Assembly (NCBI GenBank): GCA_038203565.1
Contig: JBBRDV010000021.1
Span: 1 to 20,564 of the forward strand
Reading direction: 5' to 3'
Length of the DNA: 20,564 nucleotides
Source of the DNA: Atribacterota bacterium
GTDB taxonomy: Bacteria > Atribacterota > Phoenicimicrobiia > Phoenicimicrobiales > Phoenicimicrobiaceae
Within the stretch, counting starts at the first letter, position 1; every line of letters begins with the position of its first letter. The notes beneath the pieces are model-generated. The model did not search any database. It was not told where the DNA came from and was given only the letters and a program-made list of their open reading frames with translations. Made by a program: the position numbers and the translations under genes. This document shows positions 5,414-17,213 of this stretch, piece after piece.

Positions 5414-6658
5414 ATGCCAGTAATCAAACCATTCAAAGCTTTTAGGCCCCAACCGGAGTTGGTGATCAAAGTAGCATCACCACCTTATGATGTTCTAAAT
5501 GCCGAGGAAGCCCGTCAATTGGCGAAAGATAATCCTTATTCCTTTCTTCACGTTAATAAAGCAGAGATAGATTTAGACCCTTCCGTAGACCATTATAACC
5601 AAAAGGTGTACGAAAAAGCCAGGGAAAATCTCGATAGGTTGATTGAGAAAAAAGTGTATTTACAGGACAAACAGGAAAAGATTTATATCTATAGACAGAT
5701 AATGAAAGGAAGGGCTCAAATCGGATTGGTGGTCTGTGTTTCTGTAGATGATTATCTTCAAGAAAAGATTAAGAAACATGAAAATACTCGAGAAGACAAA
5801 GAAAGAGACCGCATAAATCATATTGATTTTACTGATGCCAATACCGGTCCGGTTTTTCTTACTTACAAAGCAAAAGATGAGATCAAACAAATTGTAAATA
5901 GATGGACTAAAGAGGAAAATCCCATATATGATTTTACCTCAGAGGATGGAATTACTCACACCTGCTGGGTCATTGATGATGAATTAACCATTCAGCAGTT
6001 AATAGAATTCTTTGCCGGGATTGATTATTTTTATATTGCCGATGGTCATCATCGGGCAGCAGCCGCGACTAAAGTAGGGCTTAAGAGAAGAGAACAGCTT
6101 AAAAATTATACCGGGAAGGAAGAGTTTAATTACTTTCTGTCTGTTCTTTTCCCTCATGATGAACTATATATTATGAGCTATAATCGGGTAGTAGCTGATT
6201 TGACAGGAAATTCTGAAGAAGAATTTATCCGGAAAATATCTGAAAAATTTAGCATAGAAGAATATAGCAAAGAAGGTCTCTACCAACCGGAAGCAAGGCA
6301 TACCTTTGGTATGTATTTAGGTGACTGTTGGTATAAACTAACTGCTAATCCGGGGACTTTTGGTGAAGATGATGTAGTAAATAGTCTTGACGTCTCGATA
6401 CTGCAAAATAATCTGCTCACCCCTATTTTAGGGATAGAAGACCCCCGAACAGACCAGAGAATAGAATTTGTAGGAGGAATCAGAGGCTTAGAGGAGTTAG
6501 AGAAAAGAGTAAAGGAGGGGATGAAAGTTGCCTTTTCCTTGCATCCTACTTCTATAGAAGAATTGATGAAGGTAGCCGATGCAGGAAGATTAATGCCTCC
6601 CAAATCGACCTGGTTTGAGCCTAAACTGCGAAGCGGTATCTTTATCCATAAACTATAA
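5414..6658 (+). CDS. DUF1015 family protein
   Basis: PFKAFRP, SPPYDV, NPYSFLH, IKKHENT, YIADGHHR and MPPKSTWFEPKLRSG are DUF1015 hallmarks; usual position after serC-serA. Confidence 0.92.
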   Translation: MPVIKPFKAFRPQPELVIKVASPPYDVLNAEEARQLAKDNPYSFLHVNKAEIDLDPSVDHYNQKVYEKARENLDRLIEKKVYLQDKQEKIYIYRQIMKGRAQIGLVVCVSVDDYLQEKIKKHENTREDKERDRINHIDFTDANTGPVFLTYKAKDEIKQIVNRWTKEENPIYDFTSEDGITHTCWVIDDELTIQQLIEFFAGIDYFYIADGHHRAAAATKVGLKRREQLKNYTGKEEFNYFLSVLFPHDELYIMSYNRVVADLTGNSEEEFIRKISEKFSIEEYSKEGLYQPEARHTFGMYLGDCWYKLTANPGTFGEDDVVNSLDVSILQNNLLTPILGIEDPRTDQRIEFVGGIRGLEELEKRVKEGMKVAFSLHPTSIEELMKVADAGRLMPPKSTWFEPKLRSGIFIHKL

Positions 6659-6660
6659 AC

Positions 6661-6706
6661 AGTATATAGTATGTAGTATGTAGTATATAGTATAGAGTAT
6701 ATAGTA
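6661..6706. repeat. Heptanucleotide tandem repeat (AGTATRT-like) x ~6.5
   Basis: AGTATAT AGTATGT AGTATGT AGTATAT AGTATAG AGTATAT AGTA, starting 3 nt after the DUF1015 stop. Confidence 0.9.
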
Positions 6707-6732
6707 AAAAAAATAAAAGAAAGAAAAATGTT

Positions 6733-6757
6733 GGAGACGGATGAATTCGTCCCCTAC
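6733..6757 (-). repeat. GTAG-type REP-like palindrome
   Basis: Minus strand reads GTAGGGGACGAATTCATCCGTCTCC: a GTAG tetranucleotide followed by an imperfect GC-rich palindrome in an AT-rich intergenic region. Confidence 0.55.
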
Positions 6758-6816
6758 CTGTGAGCCTGGCAAGAATGATAATTTGTCAGTAATAAATATT
6801 TCATTTGAAAGCAGAT

Positions 6817-7710
6817 ATGAATACGAAAGAAGAAATAAAAGAACAATTAAGTAAAAGAACTCTATTGCTCGATGGAGCAATGGGCACCATGCTCCAACTA
6901 TATGGCCTTAAGTCGGGAGAGTGCCCTGAAGAATGGAATATATCTCATCCTCAAGTAGTGCAAAAAATTCATCAAGAATATATAGAGGCTGGAGCGGATA
7001 TAATACTGACCAATACTTTTGGCGCTAATAGAATTAAATTAAGAGGTTTTGGTAGAGAAACCAATATTCTACAAATAAATGAAATGGCAGTCAATATTGC
7101 TAAAGAGGCAGTAGACAAAGAAAGAAATTTAGAAAAAAGGATATTTATCGCCGGTTCTCTAGGACCTACGGGGAAGATCTTAGAACCATATGGAGATTTA
7201 AAAGTAAGTGAGGTTTATAAAAACTATAAAGAACAGACAGTTATTTTGGAGAAAGCAGGTGTAGATTTAATAATTTTAGAAACTTTTTATGATCTTGAAG
7301 AGATAAAAATTGCACTAAAGGCAGTGAAGGAAAATACTAATTTAATGGTGATTGCTTCGATGACTTTTGATAAAAATTTAAAGACTATATATGGAGTTGA
7401 CCCGGAAAGAGCAGTAATAGTTCTTGAAAATGAAGGAGCAGATGGGGTAGGAGCTAATTGCGGAACCGGTCCGGAAGTTCTATATAAAGTCTTGAAAATA
7501 ATGAAGAAGGTAAGCAAGATTTATTTAATGGCTGAGCCTAATGCGGGGATGCCTGAATTGATTAAAGGTAAAGTAGTATATCCTGCATCTCCCAAAATAA
7601 TGGCTGATTATACTGAAAAATTTGTTAAATTAGGGTTAAATTTAATTGGTGGTTGTTGTGGTACCACACCCTTACATATTAAAGCAATGTCGGATAAAAT
7701 TATTAGCTAA
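6817..7710 (+). CDS. Homocysteine S-methyltransferase family protein (stand-alone MetH Hcy-binding domain)
   Basis: LLDGAMGTMLQ, AGADIILTNTFGAN, AGSLGPTG, LETF, Zn ligands GANC and GGCCGTTP, PNAGMP. Alternative TTG start at 6805. Confidence 0.92.
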   Translation: MNTKEEIKEQLSKRTLLLDGAMGTMLQLYGLKSGECPEEWNISHPQVVQKIHQEYIEAGADIILTNTFGANRIKLRGFGRETNILQINEMAVNIAKEAVDKERNLEKRIFIAGSLGPTGKILEPYGDLKVSEVYKNYKEQTVILEKAGVDLIILETFYDLEEIKIALKAVKENTNLMVIASMTFDKNLKTIYGVDPERAVIVLENEGADGVGANCGTGPEVLYKVLKIMKKVSKIYLMAEPNAGMPELIKGKVVYPASPKIMADYTEKFVKLGLNLIGGCCGTTPLHIKAMSDKIIS

Positions 7711-7713
7711 AAT

Positions 7714-7742
7714 TTGACAAAGTTTATAAATGATGATAAAAT
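7714..7742 (+). promoter_or_regulatory. Strong sigma70/SigA-type promoter driving the riboswitch/ANTAR transcript
   Basis: TTGACA (7714-7719), 17 bp spacer, TG-A-TAAAAT extended -10 (7734-7742). Confidence 0.75.
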
Positions 7743-7763
7743 TTCGGAAAATTGAATATGTTT

Positions 7764-7878
7764 ACAGAAGTGTGTCTAGGGTTCCGTCTAATTAATTATT
7801 AGAGTCTGGACCAAGCGGTACAAGGTATCTAATCTGATACTACACTTTTAGGATAAAAGCCTGAGAGATAGGTTCTGT
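7764..7878 (+). ncRNA. ykkC-yxkD family riboswitch, subtype 2 architecture (probably ppGpp-sensing)
   Basis: Core CTAGGGTTCCG...CTGGACCAAGCGGTACA...ACAC...AGG-ATAAAAG-CCT...ATAGG. The extra P0 helix ACAGAA (7764-7769)/TTCTGT (7873-7878) and the 5' AAGTGT are typical of ppGpp/PRPP subtypes rather than guanidine-I. Confidence 0.9.
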
Positions 7879-7912
7879 CAATAACATCATTACCTATTTT
7901 TCAGGCTTTTTT
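7855..7912 (+). terminator. Intrinsic terminator (expression platform of riboswitch 1)
   Basis: AAAAGCCTGAGAGATAGGT (7855-7873) pairs with ACCTATTTTTCAGGCTTTT (7892-7910; 2 G-U pairs), and the T-run extends to 7912. The 5' arm is the aptamer 3' end, so the two structures are mutually exclusive. Confidence 0.85.
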
Positions 7913-7990
7913 ATAAATAAAAATGTTTAATACTTTAATTAAATAAAAAATTAAGAAAAATATTTATCTTAATGGATAGCATGGAGAATT

Positions 7991-8695
7991 ATGAATAATT
8001 TAGATTATGAAGATTATTTAAAAACATTAAATAAAATAAGTAGAGCTATAACTTCTGATCTTTATTTTGAGGATATATTAAAACTTATTGTAACTTTAAC
8101 TGCCAATGTAATGAAGGCAAAAGTTTGTAATGTGTGGTTATTAGACGAAAAAAAACAAGAATTTAATATTAAAGCTACTCAATCAATGCACCAGGAATAT
8201 CTAAAAAAAAGAACTATGAAATTAAATGAAGGTATAGTGGGATTAGTAGCTAGAGAGAAAAAACCAAAAATAATTTTTGATGTATTAAAAGAGGAACAAT
8301 ACAAAGAAAATAATCTTGCTATAAAAGAAGGCTTGGTTTCTATGGCAAGCATCCCTATGATGGTAAAAGATAAAGTTATTGGCGTACTTAATGTTTATAC
8401 AAATAAGCCTTATGAATTTACCAAAGCCGATATTTCTCTTTTAAGCACCATTGCCAATCAGGCAGCAGTAGCTATTGAAAAAACTGAATTAATAGTTAAG
8501 ACTAAAATAATTCAAGAAGAATTAGATACCAGAAAAAAAACAGAGAGAGCAAAAGGAATATTAATGGAAGAAAAGAACATAAATGAAAGTGAAGCTTTTT
8601 CTTTAATTAGAAAATCTAGTATGGATAAGCGAATCTCTATGAAGGAGATTGCTGAAGCCATAATACTTTCTTATGAAATTCGGCAAATAAAATGA
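7991..8695 (+). CDS. GAF-ANTAR domain RNA-binding antiterminator
   Basis: N-terminal GAF domain (EGIVGLVA, SMASIPMMVKDKVIGVLNVYT, FTKADISLLSTIANQAAVAIE), a coiled coil, then a C-terminal ANTAR domain (RKKTERAKGILM...ESEAFSLIRKSSMDKRISMKEIAEAII). Confidence 0.93.
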   Translation: MNNLDYEDYLKTLNKISRAITSDLYFEDILKLIVTLTANVMKAKVCNVWLLDEKKQEFNIKATQSMHQEYLKKRTMKLNEGIVGLVAREKKPKIIFDVLKEEQYKENNLAIKEGLVSMASIPMMVKDKVIGVLNVYTNKPYEFTKADISLLSTIANQAAVAIEKTELIVKTKIIQEELDTRKKTERAKGILMEEKNINESEAFSLIRKSSMDKRISMKEIAEAIILSYEIRQIK

Positions 8696-8821
8696 ATTAA
8701 CATATCCCAAACATAATATAAATTAAACTATTATAAATTATTGAATATTGGGGAAGTATGGCTCTTAATTGTTATTTTATTAATATAATAGGAAGATAAA
8801 AGATAATTAAATATTTTAAGT

Positions 8822-8886
8822 TTCTACAAGGGAGTAGAATAAGCGGCAAAGAAGCCTAATTATTTCAACCAGGCCAAAGAAGTCCT
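8822..8886 (+). promoter_or_regulatory. ANTAR-binding RNA motif: three hexaloop hairpins
   Basis: TTCTAC-AAGGGA-GTAGAA (8822-8839); GGC-AAAGAA-GCC (8845-8856); AGGCC-AAAGAA-GTCCT (8871-8886, one mismatch). All loops are 6 nt with A1 and G4 and are closed by C-G. Confidence 0.85.
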
Positions 8887-8924
8887 TTTTTGACAATGTT
8901 TGTCTTAAAGGGGCTTCTTTTTTT
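8876..8924 (+). terminator. Intrinsic terminator in the gdh leader, overlapping the third ANTAR hairpin
   Basis: AAGAAGTCCTTT (8877-8888) pairs with AAAGGGGCTTCTT (8907-8919); inner stem GACAA/TTGTC; T-run to 8924. Confidence 0.85.
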
Positions 8925-8980
8925 ATAAGTAAGCCTTCGTATTGAAGTAACAAAGAGAAAACAGGAGGAGGGATTGGTTT

Positions 8981-10321
8981 ATGGTAATTAAAAAAATTAA
9001 TTCAGGAGGAAGATTAACAATGACAAATCAAATAGATACTTTTGAAATGTTACAAATACAGTTAGAAAAAGATGTTAATAAAATAAATGCTTTTGAAGTA
9101 GCTCAGCTGCAGTTAGAAAAAGCTGCTTCTATAATGAATTTAGATCCTAATATTTTGATCCAACTCAAAGAACCAGAGAGAGTTTTAATGGTCTCTATTC
9201 CGGTAAAGATGGATAATGGAGCGGTGAAAGTATTTACCGGTTTTAGAGTACAATATAATACTGCTCGAGGACCGGCAAAAGGTGGAGTAAGATATCATCC
9301 TGATGTTAGTTTGGATGAAGTGAAAGCTCTTTCTGCTTGGATGACCTGGAAGTGTGCTGTTGCGGGAATTCCTTATGGTGGTTCCAAGGGAGGGATAATT
9401 TGTAATCCAAAAGAACTGTCAGATGGGGAATTAGAAAGAATTTCCCGAAGATATATCTATGAGATTTCATCTGTTATCGGCCCGAGAAAAGATATTCCTG
9501 CTCCTGATGTTTATACTACCCCCAAGATTATGGGTTGGTATATAGATACCTATAATAAACTTACTGGAGAGGAAAGTTTTTCCACTATAACCGGGAAGCC
9601 TTTAGAATTATGGGGTTCAGAGGGTAGAAAAGAAGCTACTGCTCGCGGTTTATCTTATACGGTAGAACTCGCTGCAAAAAAGCTAAATATTAATCCCTTA
9701 GAGGCCACAGTAGTAATTCAAGGGTATGGGAATGCCGGTTCAATCTCTGCTAAATTACTTCATGAACAGGGATATAAAATTATCGCGGTTAGTGATTCTA
9801 AAGGTGGAGCTTATAATCCTCAAGGGATTGATCCATCAGAAATGTTAGATTATAAAACTAAAACAAGTACGGTTAAAGGTTTTCCGAAAGCAGAATTCAT
9901 TTCCAATAAAGATTTATTAGAAATAGAATGCGATGTTTTAGTACCGGCAGCTTTGGAAGGAGTAATAACTGAGAAAAACGCGAATAATATAAAAGCAAAA
10001 ATAATAGCTGAAGCCGCAAATGGACCTACCACTCCGAGAGCAGATGAAATATTATATCAGAGAGGAGTTTTTATGATTCCCGATATTTTAGCTAACGCTG
10101 GTGGTGTTACTGTATCTTATTTTGAATGGGTACAAGGTCTTTATGGCTATTTCTGGGATGAAGAAAGGGTAAATCGAAGATTAAAAAAGCTAATGGTAAA
10201 GGCATTTAATGAAGTATTAAAGCTTGCTCAAAGAGAGAAAATAGATAATCGAACTGCAGCATACATATATGCTGTATCACAGGTAGCGGAAGCAATGAAG
10301 GTCCGAGGAATCTGGCCTTAA
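8981..10321 (+). CDS. gdhA: Glutamate dehydrogenase (Glu/Leu/Phe/Val dehydrogenase family)
   Basis: [78 protein letters not shown] second possible start, ATG 9020, has its own AGGAGG. Confidence 0.96.
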
Positions 10322-10381
10322 ATTTTTTAGCTTAATCTATTTATTAAGCAAAGTCTAATCAGGCTAAAGGAGGATGAACAG

Positions 10382-11797
10382 ATGGCGACAGTAGAGTTTA
10401 GTGAACGTACCAATCTTATAGAGCAGGCTGTATATAAATATAGTCTTCAGGATGTAGCAGAACCAAATCTTTTCCGGGAGATAATGCCCTACAAAGAGAT
10501 TCCTAAGGTAACTTTCAATCATAGACATGTTCCTATGGTTGTCCCTAATGAAATCTGGATTACTGATACAACCTTTAGGGATGGGCAGCAGTCTCGGTCT
10601 CCTTATACGACGGACCAGATATTGAGAATTTTCGATTTTCTTCATGAACTTGATAATGAATCTGGGGTAATAAGACAGACAGAATTTTTTATCTATTCTA
10701 AAAGAGATAGGAAAGCCGTAGAAAAATGTCTGAGTAAAGGATACTTATTTCCTGAAGTGACAACCTGGATAAGGGCTAAGGAAGAGGATTTTAAGTTAGT
10801 TAAAGAGATGGGCATAAAAGAGACAGGGATATTGGTCCCTTGTTCTGATTATCATATATTTAAAAAGCTTAATCTTAGTCGGAAACAGGCAATAGAAATG
10901 TATATTTCTATTGTGAAATTAGCCCTGGAGAATGGGATAATTCCCAGGTGTCATTTTGAAGACATTACCAGGGCAGATTTTTATGGTTTTGTTGTTCCGT
11001 TTGCGAATGAACTTATGATACTTTCCAGACAAACGAAAATGCCTATCAAGATAAGGGCTTGTGATACTTTAGGGTTAGGTGTTTCTTACCCGGGAGCAGC
11101 TTTACCGCGATGTGTGCAAGGTATTATATATGGACTTAGACATTATGCTGAGGTACCTTCAGAATGGATCGAGTGGCATGGTCATAATGATTTTTATAAA
11201 GTTGTAACCAATTCTACTACAGCCTGGCTTTATGGTGCCTCAGCCGTGAATACCTCTATTTTAGGAATAGGTGAAAGAACGGGAAATTGCCCTCTGGAAG
11301 CAATGGTTATTGAATATGCTCAACTTAGAGGGACGACAAAAAATATGAAATTGGAAGTCATAACTGAGATAGCTAATTATTTCGAGAGGGAAATTAAATA
11401 TCAAATACCGTCTCGAACTCCTTTTGTGGGGGATGCTTTTAATAAAACCAGAGCAGGAATTCATGCGGATGGAATATTAAAGGATGAAGAAATTTATAAT
11501 ATATTTGATACAGAAAGGATATTGAATAGACCTGTGCTAGTTACAGTTGATTCGCATTCAGGGCTGGCCGGGATTGCTTTTTGGATGAATAAATATTTTA
11601 AATTAGAAGGGGAAAGAAGAATAAACAAAAGAGATCCGATGGTTTTAAAGTTAAAGGAATACATTGACAAAGAATATGTAAAAGGTAGGGTAACTAGTTT
11701 TAGTGATGAAGAACTGGAATCTTTAATAACTTTCTCCATTGAAGGAAGAGGACAGAGTAAGGGCGAAACGCCCGGTTTCGATTTATCTAACCCTTAG
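10382..11797 (+). CDS. Re-citrate synthase (DRE-TIM metallolyase / isopropylmalate synthase-like family)
   Basis: IWITDTTFRDGQQSRSPY, RQTEFF, PRCHFEDITRAD, metal motif HGHND, GIGERTGN and AGIHADG, as in clostridial/Syntrophus Re-citrate synthases. No LeuA regulatory domain; adjacent to aconitase and IDH. Confidence 0.82.
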   Translation: MATVEFSERTNLIEQAVYKYSLQDVAEPNLFREIMPYKEIPKVTFNHRHVPMVVPNEIWITDTTFRDGQQSRSPYTTDQILRIFDFLHELDNESGVIRQTEFFIYSKRDRKAVEKCLSKGYLFPEVTTWIRAKEEDFKLVKEMGIKETGILVPCSDYHIFKKLNLSRKQAIEMYISIVKLALENGIIPRCHFEDITRADFYGFVVPFANELMILSRQTKMPIKIRACDTLGLGVSYPGAALPRCVQGIIYGLRHYAEVPSEWIEWHGHNDFYKVVTNSTTAWLYGASAVNTSILGIGERTGNCPLEAMVIEYAQLRGTTKNMKLEVITEIANYFEREIKYQIPSRTPFVGDAFNKTRAGIHADGILKDEEIYNIFDTERILNRPVLVTVDSHSGLAGIAFWMNKYFKLEGERRINKRDPMVLKLKEYIDKEYVKGRVTSFSDEELESLITFSIEGRGQSKGETPGFDLSNP

Positions 11798-11830
11798 GGG
11801 GATTGGGTCGGATAAATCCCGCCCCCTATA
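11774..11830. repeat. Inverted pair of REP-like palindromes
   Basis: GATTTATCTAACCC (11780-11793) matches the reverse complement of GGGTCGGATAAATC (11805-11818) at 12/14. The second unit ends CCCCCTATA, resembling the CCCCTAC end of the 6733-6757 element. Confidence 0.55.
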
Positions 11831-11893
11831 TAATTAAAAGCAATAGTATATTAGAAAGATAGTTTTGAATTTTGAATTTAGGAGGTTTTTAAG

Positions 11894-13834
11894 TTGCAAT
11901 TAACGGTTGCCCAAAAGATAATTAGTGAACATTTGGTAAGCGGGAAGATGATTTCAGGAGAAGAAATAATAATAAGTATTGATCAGACTCTTACTCAGGA
12001 TGCTACCGGAACGATGGCCTATCTTGAATTTGAAGCATTAGGAGTTGACAGGGTAAAGACAAAAAAGTCTGTAGCGTATGTTGACCATAATACTCTCCAA
12101 ACCGGGCCTGAAAATGCTGATGATCATCTTTATATCCAGACGGTGGCGAAGAAGTATGGGATATATTATTCAAAACCAGGTAATGGCATATGTCATCAGG
12201 TTCATTTAGAAAGGTTTGCAATTCCAGGACAGACGCTTTTAGGCTCTGACAGTCACACTCCCACCGCTGGTGGCATGGGAATGCTGGCTATAGGGGCAGG
12301 AGGGGTTGATATAGCTGTAGCTATGGCAAACGGAGAATATTGTATTGCAATGCCCAGGATATTAAAAGTTAATCTTATAGGTGAATTGAATCCTTGGGTT
12401 TCGGCAAAAGACATTATACTCGAACTTTTAAGAAGAGTAACTGTTAAGGGTGGAGTTGGTAAGATATTTGAGTATGCTGGTGATGGTATTAAGAACTTAT
12501 CTGTCCCTCAAAGGGCAACAATCACTAATATGGGGGCTGAACTGGGGGCGACGACTTCTATATTTCCGAGTGATGAAATTACCTTTAGTTTTTTAAAAGC
12601 TCAAAAAAGAGAGAAGGATTTTTTTGAAATGAAAGCTGATGATGGGGCAATTTATGATGAAGAATTAGAGATAAATCTTTCCCAAATAGAACCTCTGGCA
12701 GCTTGTCCTCATAGCCCGGATAAGGTAGTGCCTGTATCCTCTTTAAAAGGAATTAAGGTTAACCAGGTAGTTATAGGAAGCTGTACGAATTCCTCTTATA
12801 GTGATTTGGTAAGGGTAGCAAAAATTCTCGAAGGTAAAACCATAGCAGAACATATTTCTTTAGCAATAGCGCCAGGATCAAAACAGGTTTTATCTATGCT
12901 TGCTCAAAATGGAGTTTTGGCAGCGTTAATTATATCAGGAGCAAGAATTCTTGAATGTGCCTGTGGTCCCTGTATTGGCATGGGACAATCTCCGCCAACA
13001 AATAGCGTGTCTTTAAGAACTTTTAATCGGAATTTTAAGGGGAGATCAGGTACGCTCTCGGCAAAAATTTATTTAGTAAGTCCCGAAGTTGCTGCAGTGT
13101 CAGCAATTACCGGTTATTTTACTGACCCAAGAGAATTCGGATTAGAAGATTATAGTGAAATTAAAATGCCTAAAACATTTTTAGTTAATGATAATATAAT
13201 TTTAACACCGGTTAATAATTACGAAGAGGTCGAAATAATAAGAGGACCTAACATAAAACCGTTTCCGTTAAGTGAACCCTTGAGCCCAGAGGTTCAAGGA
13301 AAAGTTCTAACAAAAGTAGGGGATAACATCACGACAGATGATATAATGCCTTCAAATGCAAAACTTCTTCCTTTCAGATCAAATATACCTTATCTTTCTA
13401 ATTATTGTTTAACTCCTTGTGATAAAGATTTTCCGAGGAAAGCAAGAGAAAACAGAGGTGGCTTTATTATTGGGGGTATAAATTATGGGCAAGGATCAAG
13501 TCGAGAACATGCTGCTCTTGTCCCTCTGTATTTGGGAATAAAAGCTGTTTTGGCAAAATCATTTGCGAGGATACATCAGGCAAATCTTATAAATAATGGA
13601 ATAATGCCTTTGGTATTTGAAAATCCAGAAGATTATGATGATATAGAAGAAGTAGACGAACTTTTAATAGAAGATGCTATTTCCCAGGTCAAGAGCAGAA
13701 CGATTAAGCTTAAAAATTTAACCAAGGGCAAAGTATATAAGATGATTTTAGATATTACTCTCCGACAGAGAGAGATGATAATTCAGGGAGGACTTTTAAA
13801 TCTAATAAGATTTAAAGGAAAGGGAAAGGAATAA
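11894..13834 (+). CDS. acn: Aconitate hydratase (short, ~650-aa type)
   Basis: TQDATGT, YVDHN, GICHQVH, GSDSHT, Fe-S cysteines IGSCTN and CGPCIG, FNRNF, NITTD and NYGQGSSREHA; TTG start after AGGAGG. Confidence 0.93.
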   Translation: MQLTVAQKIISEHLVSGKMISGEEIIISIDQTLTQDATGTMAYLEFEALGVDRVKTKKSVAYVDHNTLQTGPENADDHLYIQTVAKKYGIYYSKPGNGICHQVHLERFAIPGQTLLGSDSHTPTAGGMGMLAIGAGGVDIAVAMANGEYCIAMPRILKVNLIGELNPWVSAKDIILELLRRVTVKGGVGKIFEYAGDGIKNLSVPQRATITNMGAELGATTSIFPSDEITFSFLKAQKREKDFFEMKADDGAIYDEELEINLSQIEPLAACPHSPDKVVPVSSLKGIKVNQVVIGSCTNSSYSDLVRVAKILEGKTIAEHISLAIAPGSKQVLSMLAQNGVLAALIISGARILECACGPCIGMGQSPPTNSVSLRTFNRNFKGRSGTLSAKIYLVSPEVAAVSAITGYFTDPREFGLEDYSEIKMPKTFLVNDNIILTPVNNYEEVEIIRGPNIKPFPLSEPLSPEVQGKVLTKVGDNITTDDIMPSNAKLLPFRSNIPYLSNYCLTPCDKDFPRKARENRGGFIIGGINYGQGSSREHAALVPLYLGIKAVLAKSFARIHQANLINNGIMPLVFENPEDYDDIEEVDELLIEDAISQVKSRTIKLKNLTKGKVYKMILDITLRQREMIIQGGLLNLIRFKGKGKE

Positions 13835-13858
13835 TTACATTGGCAGGAGGTAACTTAA

Positions 13859-14854
13859 TTGACTTATAATATTACCTTAATTCCGGGGGATGGAATTGGC
13901 CCACAAGTAACAGAAGCTGCAAAAATGGTTTTGGAGGCTAGTGGAGTAGAAATTAATTGGGAAATTGTGGAAGCTGGTGAAAAAGTTATTGAAAAATATG
14001 GTACACCCCTTCCTGATTATGTAATAGATAGTATCAAAAGAAATAGGGTGGCATTAAAAGGACCGGTTACAACACCTGTAGGTACAGGTTTTAGAAGTAT
14101 TAATGTAGCGCTAAGAAAAACTTTAAACCTTTATGCCAATGTAAGACCTGTAAAGTCCTATAAGGGCGTACCATCAAGATATGAGGATATTGATTTGGTA
14201 ATAGTTCGAGAAAATACCGAGGATTTATATTCTGGAGTAGAGCATATGGTAGGAGAAGATGCTGCTGAGAGCATAAAAATAATAACCAGGAAAGCGAGTG
14301 AAAGGATTGCAAAATTTGCCTTTGAGTTAGCCAGAAAAGAAGAAAGAAGAAAAGTTACAGCAGTTCACAAGGCAAATATAATGAAATGTACAGACGGACT
14401 TTTCTTAGATTGTGTTAGAAAAGTGTCTCAAGAATACCCCGAGATAATTTTTGAAGACGTGATAGTTGATGCAATGAGTATGAAGTTGGTTCAAATACCT
14501 CAAGATTATGAGGTTTTAGTTATGCCAAATCTTTATGGAGACATACTTTCTGATTTGGCAGCAGGATTAGTTGGGGGCTTAGGGGTAGTGCCAGGAGCCA
14601 ACATAGGAGATAGAGAGGTTGTATTTGAACCAGCACATGGATCAGCTCCTGAATTAAGTTCGAATATAGCTAATCCAACAGCAACAATACTTTCCGGGAC
14701 AATGATGTTAAGGTATTTAGGAGAGAGAGGAGCTGCAGACAGGGTGGAAAAAGCTGTCGAAAAAGTATTAAAAGAGGGCAAAAAAACAACTAAAGATCTT
14801 GGAGGAAATTTAGGAACATTAGAGTATACCCAGGCAATTATAGATATTTTATAA
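13859..14854 (+). CDS. icd: Isocitrate dehydrogenase (isocitrate/isopropylmalate dehydrogenase family)
   Basis: [17 protein letters not shown] and RSINVALR (the IDH-type S-x-N-x-x-x-R rather than the IPMDH pattern), [31 protein letters not shown]. Follows aconitase; TTG start after AGGAGG. Confidence 0.85.
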
Positions 14855-14877
14855 ATAAAAATATTGCATCTGGCTTC

Positions 14878-14906
14878 TTGCCTAATGTTATTTTTTAGTA
14901 TACTAT
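14878..14906 (+). promoter_or_regulatory. Possible promoter for ilvD
   Basis: TTGCCT (14878-14883), 17 bp spacer, TACTAT (14901-14906). Confidence 0.4.
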
Positions 14907-15008
14907 AGTTCTTAGTAATGCAACGTGGATGTATTGCTTAACCAATAATCGATTTATCTATCGAAAGCTTATTAATTAAGATAAAAAATGAAAAGTAGGT
15001 GAAGAATT

Positions 15009-16670
15009 ATGCGTAGCGATGTAATAAAAAAAGGTGTAGCCAGGGCTCCTCATCGTTCCTTACTTAAAGCATTAGGAATTACTGATGAAGAAATGAACAA
15101 ACCCTTTATCGGTGTTGCTCAGGCAGCTAATGAAATTATTCCCGGACACCTTCATTTGAAAAATATTGCTCAGGCAGCAAAAGATGGAATAAGAATGGCA
15201 GGTGGAGTCCCCTTTGAATTTTCAACTATAGGAGTGTGTGATGGGCTGGCTATGAATCATGAAGGAATGAAATATTCTTTGCCGAGCAGAGAGTTGATAG
15301 CAGACTCTATTGAAATTATGGCCAAAGCCCATGCCTTTGATGCCTTAGTGCTTGTCCCTAATTGTGATAAAATAGTTCCGGGAATGATTATGGGTGCCCT
15401 AAGGGTGAATATACCGACTATTTTGATAAGTGGCGGACCTATGTTAGCAGGATTTTACCAAGGAAAAAATATTGCTCTGAGCAATGTCTTTGAAGCAGTA
15501 GGAAAGTTTCAAACAGATTCTATAAGTGAGCAAGAATTAAAAGAAGTAGAAGATTATGCTTGTCCGGGAATTGGTTCATGTGCCGGCCTGTATACCGCTA
15601 ATTCTATGAATATTTGGGCAGAAGCTGCAGGTATAGCTCTCCCCGGTAATGGAACTATTCCAGCTGTAGATGCCCGAAGGATAAGGTTAGCAAAACATAC
15701 TGGAATGAGAATTATGGAATTGTTAAAAAAAGAGGTTAAATTTTTAGATATTATTACTAAAAAGGCTATAGAGAATGCGATCGCTGTGGAAATGGCCTTG
15801 GGAGGTTCCTCTAATACCATGCTTCATTCTTTAGCGATTGCCTTTGAAGCAGGTATTCCTTTTGACATAGATGATTTTAACCGAATAAGGGAACAAGTTT
15901 CGCAATTGTGTAGCCTTTCTCCTGCCGGAGAGCACCATATTCAAGATTTAGATAGAGCAGGAGGTATTTCCGCTTTACTTAAGGAGCTGAGTAGGAAGAA
16001 GATTATTCATTTAGGAGAAATGACCGTAACCGGCAAAAACGTCGGTCAGAATATTGAAAATGCCCAAATATTGGATCATAAAGTCATCAGAACCATAGAA
16101 GAGGCCTATAATCCTAAAGGGGGAATTGTCTTCTTAAAAGGTAATCTGGCTCCTCAAGGTGCAGTAGTAAAAAGTTCGGCAGTTCATCCGGATATGCTCG
16201 AACATTGTGGTCCTGCTAGAGTATTTGATTCCGAAGAAGAAAGTACTAAAGCAATTTTGGAAGGTAAGATTAAAAAAGGAGATGTTATAGTAATCCGTTA
16301 TGAAGGTCCTAAGGGCGGTCCAGGAATGAGGGAGATGTTAACTCCTACATCGGCCATCTTTGGTATGGGATTGGATAAAGATGTAGCTTTGATTACCGAT
16401 GGACGTTTTTCTGGAGCTACCCGAGGAGCATCTATCGGTCATGTTGCCCCTGAGGCAGCTGCAGGAGGACCAATAGCTATTGTTAGAGAAGGAGATATTA
16501 TTAAAATCGATATACCTCAAAAAAGGTTGGACCTTAAGATAGACGAGGAAGAGATAAAACAAAGATTAGATAAATTAAAATTACCTTCTTCTACAAGAAA
16601 ATCAGGTTATCTAAAATATTATGCTAATTTTGTAGGGCCCGCTGACAAAGGAGCAGTAAGAAATATTTAA
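15009..16670 (+). CDS. ilvD: Dihydroxy-acid dehydratase
   Basis: [74 protein letters not shown] and TDGRFSG. Confidence 0.97.
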
Positions 16671-16770: not shown

Positions 16771-16794
16771 ATTTTTTAATAAACAAAAATTGTA

Positions 16795-17082
16795 AACAAT
16801 GAAGGAATAAGTAGGCAGACAGAGATTGTTAAAGAGAGCCAATGGTTGGTGCGAATTGGTAACATAACTTTGCCGAAGATCTCACCTTCAAATATTTTAT
16901 ACACAGGTGAAATTACCTAGTAACCTGTGACGCCTCAAAGGCGTTATCTATTGTCTACCAATTAAGGATAAAGGTAAGGAAGGTTCACCCCTTCTTTTCT
17001 TTATTAAATTAGGGTGGTACCACGAATAACTTTCGTCCCTATTTTAGTCTTTATAGATTAAGATAAAGATGGAAGTTTTTTT
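16795..17082 (+). ncRNA. T-box riboswitch, specifier CUC (Leu), with transcription terminator
   Basis: Stem I GAAGG/CCTTC with AGTA motif, AGAGAG bulge and GGTGCGAA distal loop; specifier loop GAAGAT-CTC-A (16881-16883); stem II CACAGGT...AGTAACCTGTG; T-box AATTAGGGTGGTACCACG (17007-17024); antiterminator partner CGTCCCT; terminator 17028-17082. Confidence 0.95.
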
Positions 17083-17089
17083 ATTTTTC

Positions 17090-17213
17090 GGGAGTATGCC
17101 TAGGGTTCCGTCTAATCAATTAAGCTTAGAGCCTGGACCGAGTGGCATAAAATACTAATATCACAGTATTAGTATTACACCGTGGGTAAAAAAGACCCCA
17201 GCGGATAGGTCCC
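17090..17213 (+). ncRNA. ykkC subtype 2a (ppGpp) riboswitch in tandem after the T-box
   Basis: GGGAGTATGCCTAGGGTTCCG...CTGGACCGAGTGGCATA...ACACCGTGGGT-AAAAAAG-ACCC-CAGCGG-ATAGG-TCCC; P0 helix GGGA/TCCC. A17200 occupies the position that is G in PRPP aptamers. The ilv context is canonical for ppGpp riboswitches. Confidence 0.92.

Follow-up and report, generated by a model that had tools for sequence, protein, structure and literature searches.

The stretch of DNA analysed here (the window, 20,564 nucleotides of contig JBBRDV010000021.1 from an Atribacterota bacterium of the Phoenicimicrobiaceae, assembly GCA_038203565.1) carries on its forward strand two transcription attenuators in series. 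A ykkC-type riboswitch with an overlapping terminator precedes a gene for a GAF-ANTAR antiterminator protein, and behind that gene three hexaloop hairpins overlapping a second terminator precede genes for glutamate dehydrogenase (GDH; gdh), Re-citrate synthase (Re-CS), aconitate hydratase (acn) and isocitrate dehydrogenase (IDH; icd). This order of elements, and the overlap of switch and terminator in both attenuators, had been proposed in a first-pass annotation; both were found here and are conserved across the lineage. Each device is known, and what is new is their serial wiring into a two-tier attenuator that is real, conserved and lineage-restricted. A sigma70-type promoter with an extended -10 element is predicted at 7714-7742, where the same annotation had placed one; it matches 11 of 12 consensus positions, carries the TG extension and is the best-scoring of 32 matches in 6500-16000. 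That number of matches is at chance level (32.6 in shuffles), and only score and conservation in relatives mark this site; TTGACA is kept 5' of the aptamer in the relatives inspected.

The aptamer lies at 7765-7877, and its earlier assignment to ykkC was borne out by a match to RF00442 at 7765-7869 (62.8 bits, E 1.9e-10) that spans the full model (positions 1-107), the larger interval including helix P0. At the gathering threshold of 63 the window aptamer is 0.2 bit short and would be missed, and orthologous aptamers score 47.6-65.4 bits against the same model. In an alignment of 15 sequences, including a paralogue from the same genome (L003), eight pairs of the aptamer structure show two-sided changes (0 of 500 shuffles), P0 (7765-7769/7873-7877) is present and 100% paired, and P3 (7845-7852/7860-7867) is a continuous, unbulged 8-bp helix, likewise 100% paired. 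The intrinsic terminator that had been claimed to end at 7912 is present (7855-7912; stem 7855-7910 plus U tract), and its 5' arm consists of the 3' strand of P3 together with the 5-nt P3-P0 linker (7868-7872), so that the two folds are mutually exclusive. The 148-nt leader (7765-7912) has an OFF fold of -48.9 kcal/mol (z -5.0, 0 of 200 shuffles) against -30.2 kcal/mol for the ON (aptamer) fold. In the 15 sequences 96.4% of terminator cells are paired, and covariation in the terminator was not above shuffles. A simple terminator scan found neither this terminator nor the second one, the loops of both exceeding the limits of the scan. Because the aptamer shares its 3' strand with the terminator and the folds exclude each other, the window aptamer is by its architecture an ON switch, and bound ligand should give readthrough.

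The gene at 7991-8695 encodes a one-component antiterminator of 234 residues in which domain profiles found both of the domains previously claimed, GAF_2 at residues 27-163 (E 2.4e-22) and ANTAR at 175-225 (E 2.5e-19; PF03861, 69.2 bits with a cut-off of 27.3), and it is the sole ANTAR match in a genome that is 99% complete. A structure model (mean predicted local distance difference test, pLDDT, 86) shows the GAF domain, a long helix at 145-195 corresponding to the coiled coil, and the ANTAR helices. Six RNA-contact residues of EutV (R142, K143, K149, E160, M172 and R175; contacts from the portion of Walshe 2022 available to us, PMC8934654) are identical, three are changed (K147 to R, Y164 to F, N173 to D) and R177, replaced by S, is not kept.

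Behind this gene, the three hexaloops with A1 and G4 and the second terminator that had been read at 8822-8924 are all present: H1 (8822-8839, 6 bp), H2 (8845-8856, 3 bp) and H3 (8872-8885, 3 bp plus a mismatch), identified by folding and conservation, and terminator 2 (8876-8924; stem 8876-8920; -22.6 kcal/mol, z -4.4), which has a comparable hairpin in relatives and whose 5' arm overlaps H3 from 8876 onward. H3 is marginal alone (+0.1 kcal/mol, one C-U mismatch). The hairpin triplet pattern matches 51 of 58 loci; the seven misses comprise four contig ends, one locus with H1 and H2 alone, one distant homologue and one unexplained case. All 25 hexaloops of H1, the loop that the pattern left free, have G4, whereas their positions 2, 3, 5 and 6 vary; G4 of H2 and H3 was imposed by the pattern. 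A1 stands in 24/25 (H1), 24/26 (H2) and 26/26 (H3) variants. Hairpin linkers measure 5 and 15 nt here and 5-7 and 14-21 nt in variants, and linker length is described as strictly constrained in ANTAR targets (in the available part of PMC8934654). A genome-wide scan for dual hairpins with a terminator gave five matches, the window site being the strongest and the other four weaker, with 0 and 0 in two mononucleotide shuffles. Rfam returned no family for the hexaloop element, a PyrR match (E 4.4) being chance.

A survey of genomes for ykkC aptamers before GAF-ANTAR genes, which the first-pass annotation had suggested as a check, showed how far this arrangement extends. Among 61 related genomes, 14 (own genome counted) carry a GAF-ANTAR orthologue at 77-100% identity, 13 of the 30 in the family and 1 of the 22 in the sister family, and 7 carry a homologue at 50%. 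By cmscan an aptamer lies 5' of 14/14 close orthologues and 0/7 distant ones. In a metagenomic set of 80 loci kept of 115, the corresponding counts were 42 of 44 at identities of at least 75%, both exceptions lying on contigs that end within the gene, and none of the 36 loci below 70%, 13 of which had also been checked by cmscan. Of 13 genome loci, 12 have gdh as the next gene behind the hairpins; the other (L018, genome G019) has Re-CS there, its cascade being intact without gdh, the hairpins standing directly before Re-CS, the H1 loop having 7 nt and the aptamer lacking the last C of ACAC. At two distant GAF-ANTAR homologues (L204 and L209, ~65%) two A1/G4 hairpins lie directly 3' of the gene, the next gene in L209 encoding a PRK13663 protein; a cassette of gene plus target thus exists without a riboswitch. 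Two short contigs with Atribacterota-like aptamer and genes (L094, L101) come from metagenome-assembled genomes labelled Fusobacteriaceae and Promethearchaeota and are probably mis-binned. The anatomy, its conservation, the mutual exclusivity of the folds and the co-occurrence of the elements are established by these data.

The sister family offers a simpler state. Three of its genomes (G031, G039 and G049) carry an orthologous gdh (65-70%) with the same aptamer type directly 5' and gave no GAF-ANTAR orthologue match, and in a quick tree the riboswitch-direct gdh genes form the sister clade of the ANTAR-gated ones (SH-aLRT, approximate likelihood-ratio support, 98). Seven sister-family loci (L110, L111, L112, L062, L063, L092 and L079, some of them the same records found twice) likewise have gdh or gltB immediately behind this aptamer type and no ANTAR gene; L062/L063 have a divergent ykkC before an IlvB-like open reading frame (ORF). 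The lineage's GAF-ANTAR proteins group with metagenomic homologues and not with the 50% homologues of their own phylum, and monophyly with the latter was rejected (p of the approximately unbiased test, p-AU, 0.0115; LG+G4, 29 rows, the group having been named after seeing the tree). Since one-tier gdh occurs in the sister clade and this monophyly is rejected, a foreign ANTAR cassette probably entered between gdh and a riboswitch already in place, which is likelier than loss in the sister family. An aptamer tree was poorly resolved, held the wrong aptamer for L062 and had lost seven Bacillota rows; it was not used for the insertion argument.

The enzyme genes claimed behind terminator 2 were all found, on the same strand and in the order given, with two amendments: the conserved start of gdh (8981-10321) is probably 9020 rather than 8981, and icd (13859-14854; PF00180 Iso_dh) is assigned at family level, its best NCBIfam models being IDH with scores below the equivalog cut-offs. 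The acn frame (11894-13834) matches NF005558 at 989.9 bits (cut-off 612). The product of 10382-11797, an HMGL-like protein, is predicted to be Re-CS by high identity and acn/icd synteny: among 120 listed matches it shares 67-72% identity with four proteins named citrate (Re)-synthase, most of the named matches being labelled isopropylmalate synthase (names are source annotations), and it scores below the homocitrate synthase and isopropylmalate synthase cut-offs. NCBIfam scores led us to reject lysine (homocitrate) synthesis as the role of the three enzymes. The candidate Re-CS is 79% identical to a Caldicellulosiruptor protein and ~70% identical to other clostridial ones, hinting at transfer. 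Re-CS, acn and icd would together make up the oxidative branch leading to 2-oxoglutarate, an arrangement described for C. acetobutylicum (PMC4669385, in part). The genome has glnA, and a search for the glutamate synthase FMN domain gave weak partial matches and no full domain, and this GDH may therefore be the chief route to glutamate. Farther on, ilvD (14855-16670 region) begins 154 nt 3' of icd with no promoter, terminator or ykkC match between them, so that transcription of the gated operon may extend into it. Where Re-CS, acn and icd are lacking, in the relatives L171, L173 and L190, a promoter-like site of its own and a canonical ykkC accompany ilvD.

From this anatomy we infer ligands, protein-RNA binding, AND logic, flux direction and order of events as follows. 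One transcript starting near 7750 would meet the two attenuators in series. As in known ykkC-2a riboswitches, terminator 1 would form when (p)ppGpp (guanosine tetra- or pentaphosphate) is absent, and bound (p)ppGpp would stabilise P3 and P0 and let RNA polymerase read the GAF-ANTAR gene. By analogy with EutV and NasR, a GAF-activated protein dimer would then bind the A1/G4 hexaloops and stabilise the weak H3, so that terminator 2 is blocked and gdh, Re-CS, aconitase and IDH are transcribed. With the GAF domain most likely reading the balance of glutamine and 2-oxoglutarate, synthesis of 2-oxoglutarate and glutamate would proceed only if amino-acid starvation, signalled by the alarmone, coincides with the right nitrogen status, which would probably make the device an AND gate with alarmone and nitrogen status as its inputs, in form a coherent feed-forward gate built from RNA attenuators. 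We hold with moderate confidence that a serial cascade of two attenuators joins these inputs to the glutamate and 2-oxoglutarate genes. The fuller version, a single-transcript feed-forward AND gate with a GAF-ANTAR protein that senses glutamine or 2-oxoglutarate and a laterally acquired cassette inserted before gdh, the one-tier state of the sister family being ancestral, is tentative, its chances somewhat short of even.

Several observations weigh against this proposal. The loci are close kin and overlap in part between collections, so that conservation is shown within one lineage and not as repeated origin. The loops of H2 and H3 are conserved beyond A1 and G4, the hairpin stems barely vary, and their two-sided changes stem from one sequence. 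Similarity to EI-Ntr's GAF domain, at ~30% identity, does not fix a ligand. Single-base changes switch ykkC ligands, and 5 of 30 predicted 2a aptamers were weak or non-binding in the published assays available (PMC9881157). The GDH is nearest a Thermotoga/Thermococcus-type family that includes catabolic NAD-specific enzymes, a second GDH is present in the genome, three loci (L171, L173, L190) keep ANTAR-gdh without Re-CS, acn and icd behind it, and the three genomes with a riboswitch-direct gdh gave no Re-CS match. Public RNA contigs were uninformative, as they cannot give starts, ends or levels, and run coverage was at most 0.16 of words.

The sensor domain is where the best of the alternatives arises, namely that the cascade is real and its GAF domain is ligand-free or reads a non-nitrogen signal, the ANTAR tier then acting as a threshold, amplifier or delay on (p)ppGpp. 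We consider this unlikely. In its favour, the ligands of GAF folds are many, good scores against the window GAF also come from cyclic-nucleotide GAFs, no GAF-ANTAR protein appears among the characterised ones in the available part of PMC7496416, and the sister family makes do with the riboswitch alone. Yet the GAF domain is strongly conserved among homologues at 50-83% identity, and its closest relatives are the GAF domains of EI-Ntr (PtsP) both by sequence (3CI6, E 8e-19) and by fold (E 9e-14, root-mean-square deviation 2.1). The EI-Ntr GAF binds glutamine (PMC4848567, in the portion available), and 2-oxoglutarate appears as a second EI-Ntr effector in a title cited there. Family neighbours also point to nitrogen metabolism: 20 neighbour proteins at distant loci, picked by eye and not blind, comprised three GlnA, two GltD-like, two PurF-like, two NAD synthase, one AmtB and one GDH protein, with three others and six without a match. 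One cluster of the GAF-ANTAR family contains an Omnitrophota member. Because the domain is nearest EI-Ntr and the family adjoins glnA, gltD, amt and glutamine-using enzymes, the glutamine/2-oxoglutarate balance is its likely input, and we consider it reasonably probable that the GAF domain reads one or the other of these metabolites.

At the first attenuator, a ykkC variant with another ligand (phosphoribosyl pyrophosphate (PRPP), GMP/XMP, pGpp or nucleoside diphosphates) would leave the wiring in place and change its input. A GMP/XMP-binding ykkC class was reportedly described in a 2025 study. The P3 helix of the window aptamer is not of the canonical 2a form seen before ilvB in the same genome; it is of the natA type and joined to a different linker, and this pairing is absent among the Table S1 rows inspected (PMC9881157). 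The published features of 2a binding (Jagodnik 2023, PMC9881157, as available) are P0, A5, an unpaired G6, a G-C between P1a and P1b, P2-ACAC and a 4-5 nt (A)NARG linker, and the window aptamer has P0, A7769, an unpaired G7770, G7815-C7816 between P1a and P1b, ACAC at 7842-7845 and a 5-nt linker at 7868-7872 that fits the (A)NARG consensus. Guanidine-I aptamers (subtype 1) have an A at the C49 equivalent and no P0, and PRPP aptamers (2b) an extra bulged G96 in P3 (PMC6031431, in part). We rejected a guanidine-I riboswitch on the C at the diagnostic position 7816 and the presence of P0, and a PRPP riboswitch on the 8-bp P3 without a G96-type extra base (register set by eye) and the absence of a purine gene 3'; a purE aptamer in the same genome has a 9-nt P3 3' strand, one base longer. 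Compared by gene context alone, with contexts from the available part of PMC7266159, the gene associations of the window aptamer type do not fit subtypes 2c or 2d. Its P3 matches the natA-type 2a aptamers C94, C101 and C103, the first two of which bind (p)ppGpp with a preference for pppGpp (PMC9881157).

A search of GTDB with this P3 pattern returned 73 loci, all with an aptamer-level match and including KE993473, the record of the validated pppGpp binder C101. Forty-seven are from Bacillota, mostly before natA-like ABC genes, and the remaining 26 precede genes of the present lineage: GAF-ANTAR (13), LivK-type (6), gdh (3), gltB (1) and, once each, an aminotransferase, a dipeptidase and a TRAP binding protein, first-gene identity resting on a domain scan for 3 of the 6 LivK-type and 2 of the 3 gdh loci. 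Classical contexts of ppGpp riboswitches are genes for glutamate synthase and for branched-chain amino acids (PMC6003355, in part); the gltB, gdh and LivK-type contexts of the present lineage are not purine, hydrolase or EamA/TauE genes, and the genome has a long RelA/SpoT gene (716-aa frame). The earlier ppGpp-type identification is thus supported by the published binding features and by the gltB, gdh and LivK-type contexts of the same aptamer type; the window aptamer very probably binds (p)ppGpp, and another ligand is improbable.

The wiring could also be kept with a catabolic or anaplerotic output, in which GDH deaminates glutamate and the GAF domain senses amino-acid excess. The catabolic NAD enzymes in the GDH family, and the three loci that keep ANTAR-gdh without the other enzymes, are what this alternative can draw on, and they leave the biosynthetic direction not certain, as does the missing Re-CS match in the riboswitch-direct genomes. 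Set against it, gdh is co-located with the 2-oxoglutarate branch as in C. acetobutylicum (PMC4669385), the hairpins at L018 gate Re-CS directly without any gdh, no full glutamate synthase was found in the genome, and ppGpp riboswitches are described as activating glutamate synthesis (in the available part of PMC6003355); we regard a catabolic output as slightly less probable than a different riboswitch ligand.

A separate gdh promoter between the ANTAR stop codon and H1, which would put the attenuators on different transcripts and let the riboswitch act through protein supply only, is very improbable, since the two 9/12 promoter-like matches in the AT-rich region 8697-8807 are at chance level, the spacer is only 25-48 nt in many relatives, and a promoter scan of that spacer in relatives gave nothing above 9/12 and no positionally fixed match. 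Because no conserved internal promoter was found, one transcript probably passes both attenuators, which is the simplest reading; a promoter scan of the window also gave no promoter-like site between terminator 2 and gdh, and one metatranscriptome contig reaches from ANTAR to Re-CS, which as an assembled contig is no proof of a single transcript. Spacer length varies from 25 to 365 nt across relatives (rows L007, L172, L191 and L197, in which AT-rich hairpins had been taken for H1, were left out), and this variation arises through AT-rich and palindromic insertions. Short AT-rich repeats and palindromic insertions occur in intergenic DNA of the window at 6640-6760 and behind the ANTAR stop in L010, L164 and L171.

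The genome carries three ykkC flavours in all. Within the window, a T-box at 16787-17043 (112.3 bits; specifier read by eye as CUC, Leu) is followed by a ykkC with canonical P3 at 17089-17206, with its own terminator, before ilvB (17328); 16787-17206 is of the published T-box plus ppGpp tandem type. A third ykkC (L003, G000:C60:61-161) has the same unbulged P3 as the window aptamer; its contig breaks off short of the gene, and nearly identical aptamers in relatives stand in front of LivK-type ABC binding proteins. The fourth (L004, G000:C166:871-1021) has a PRPP-type P3 and stands before a PurE-like ORF, named by eye from its translation. In Clostridia, natA-type aptamers at a number of loci (L047, L065, L073, L076, L078, L081, L082, L105, L041 and others) precede membrane proteins of ~400 residues, two of which were scanned and are of the major facilitator superfamily (MFS), and the aptamer at L107 precedes a GNAT gene; these contexts lie outside the three gene classes of Sherlock 2018 (PMC6003355, as available).

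The locus widens the reach of (p)ppGpp riboswitches in two ways, beyond enzyme and transporter genes to the gene of a regulator, and beyond Bacillota to the Atribacterota, which abound in sediments. With one tier in one of the sister groups and two tiers in the other, it illustrates how a riboswitch may gain a second input when a sensor-antiterminator module is inserted. It also offers a small, specified test system for the GAF-ANTAR class (a 113-nt aptamer, a 234-aa protein, a 100-nt target and four candidate metabolites) and a portable two-input RNA logic part. If the AND gate that senses glutamine or 2-oxoglutarate is true, the widespread GAF-ANTAR class would thereby gain a first ligand and a first RNA target.

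The first-pass annotation knew of no such serial architecture, and our search of the open literature, which leaves subscription papers mostly outside and in which published environmental ykkC entries often carry no gene label, found no description of a ppGpp riboswitch controlling an ANTAR gene. The same literature gave no Atribacter riboswitch and only passing mention of the GAF-ANTAR class, and a review in which riboswitches, ANTAR and ppGpp all occur draws no connection between them. The 105 published 2a examples comprise 78 before branched-chain amino acid genes, 15 before glutamate synthase and 12 before natA (PMC6003355/PMC9881157, in the portions available); the terms 'ANTAR' and 'GAF' occur nowhere in the whole supplement of Jagodnik 2023, and two regulator genes listed there, rex and mgsR, lie 5' of their aptamers by the coordinates given. 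The nearest precedents, EutX/Rli55, hutP under CodY and the T-box/ppGpp tandems, none of them placing a riboswitch over an ANTAR gene, are compared below from the available parts of their sources, along with the parent systems.

The first attenuator resembles the ykkC-2a (p)ppGpp riboswitch (Sherlock 2018, PMC6003355; Jagodnik 2023, PMC9881157) in its P0-P3 fold, diagnostic nucleotides, P3 antiterminator and link to glutamate and branched-chain genes, and shares its unbulged P3 with the natA-type C94 and C101; it differs in that the gene behind it encodes an RNA-binding regulator. The second shares with EutV (Ramesh 2012, PMC3369931; Walshe 2022, PMC8934654) and the one-component NasR (PMC7496416) A1/G4 hexaloops on short stems, the last overlapping a terminator, and nitrogen-metabolism targets, which for those systems include glutamate synthase. 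Here the sensor is a GAF domain, an uncharacterised class, three hairpins take the place of two, gdh and the 2-oxoglutarate branch are the target, and the ANTAR protein is in its turn made under riboswitch control. The sensor domain has its best sequence and structure matches in the EI-Ntr (PtsP) GAF (PDB 3CI6, 3TRC; PMC4848567), at ~30% identity and with an RNA-binding output instead of phosphotransfer. EutX/Rli55, in which a B12 riboswitch controls a small RNA that sponges EutV (PMC5821096), likewise combines riboswitch and ANTAR inputs in AND-like control, through a decoy RNA in trans, whereas the ANTAR gene here lies in cis in the same operon and the riboswitch ligand is another. In hutPHUIGM of Bacillus subtilis (PMC12591593) an antiterminator gene, an overridden terminator and enzyme genes follow one another under CodY, which reads amino-acid status upstream; there the upstream layer is a DNA-binding repressor, HutP is not an ANTAR protein and the pathway is catabolic. 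Serial attenuators with (p)ppGpp as one input are known from the tandem T-box plus ppGpp riboswitch AND gate (PMC6003355), of which the window holds an example before ilvB, but that tandem has both sensors in a single leader, and neither of them is a protein whose synthesis the other controls.

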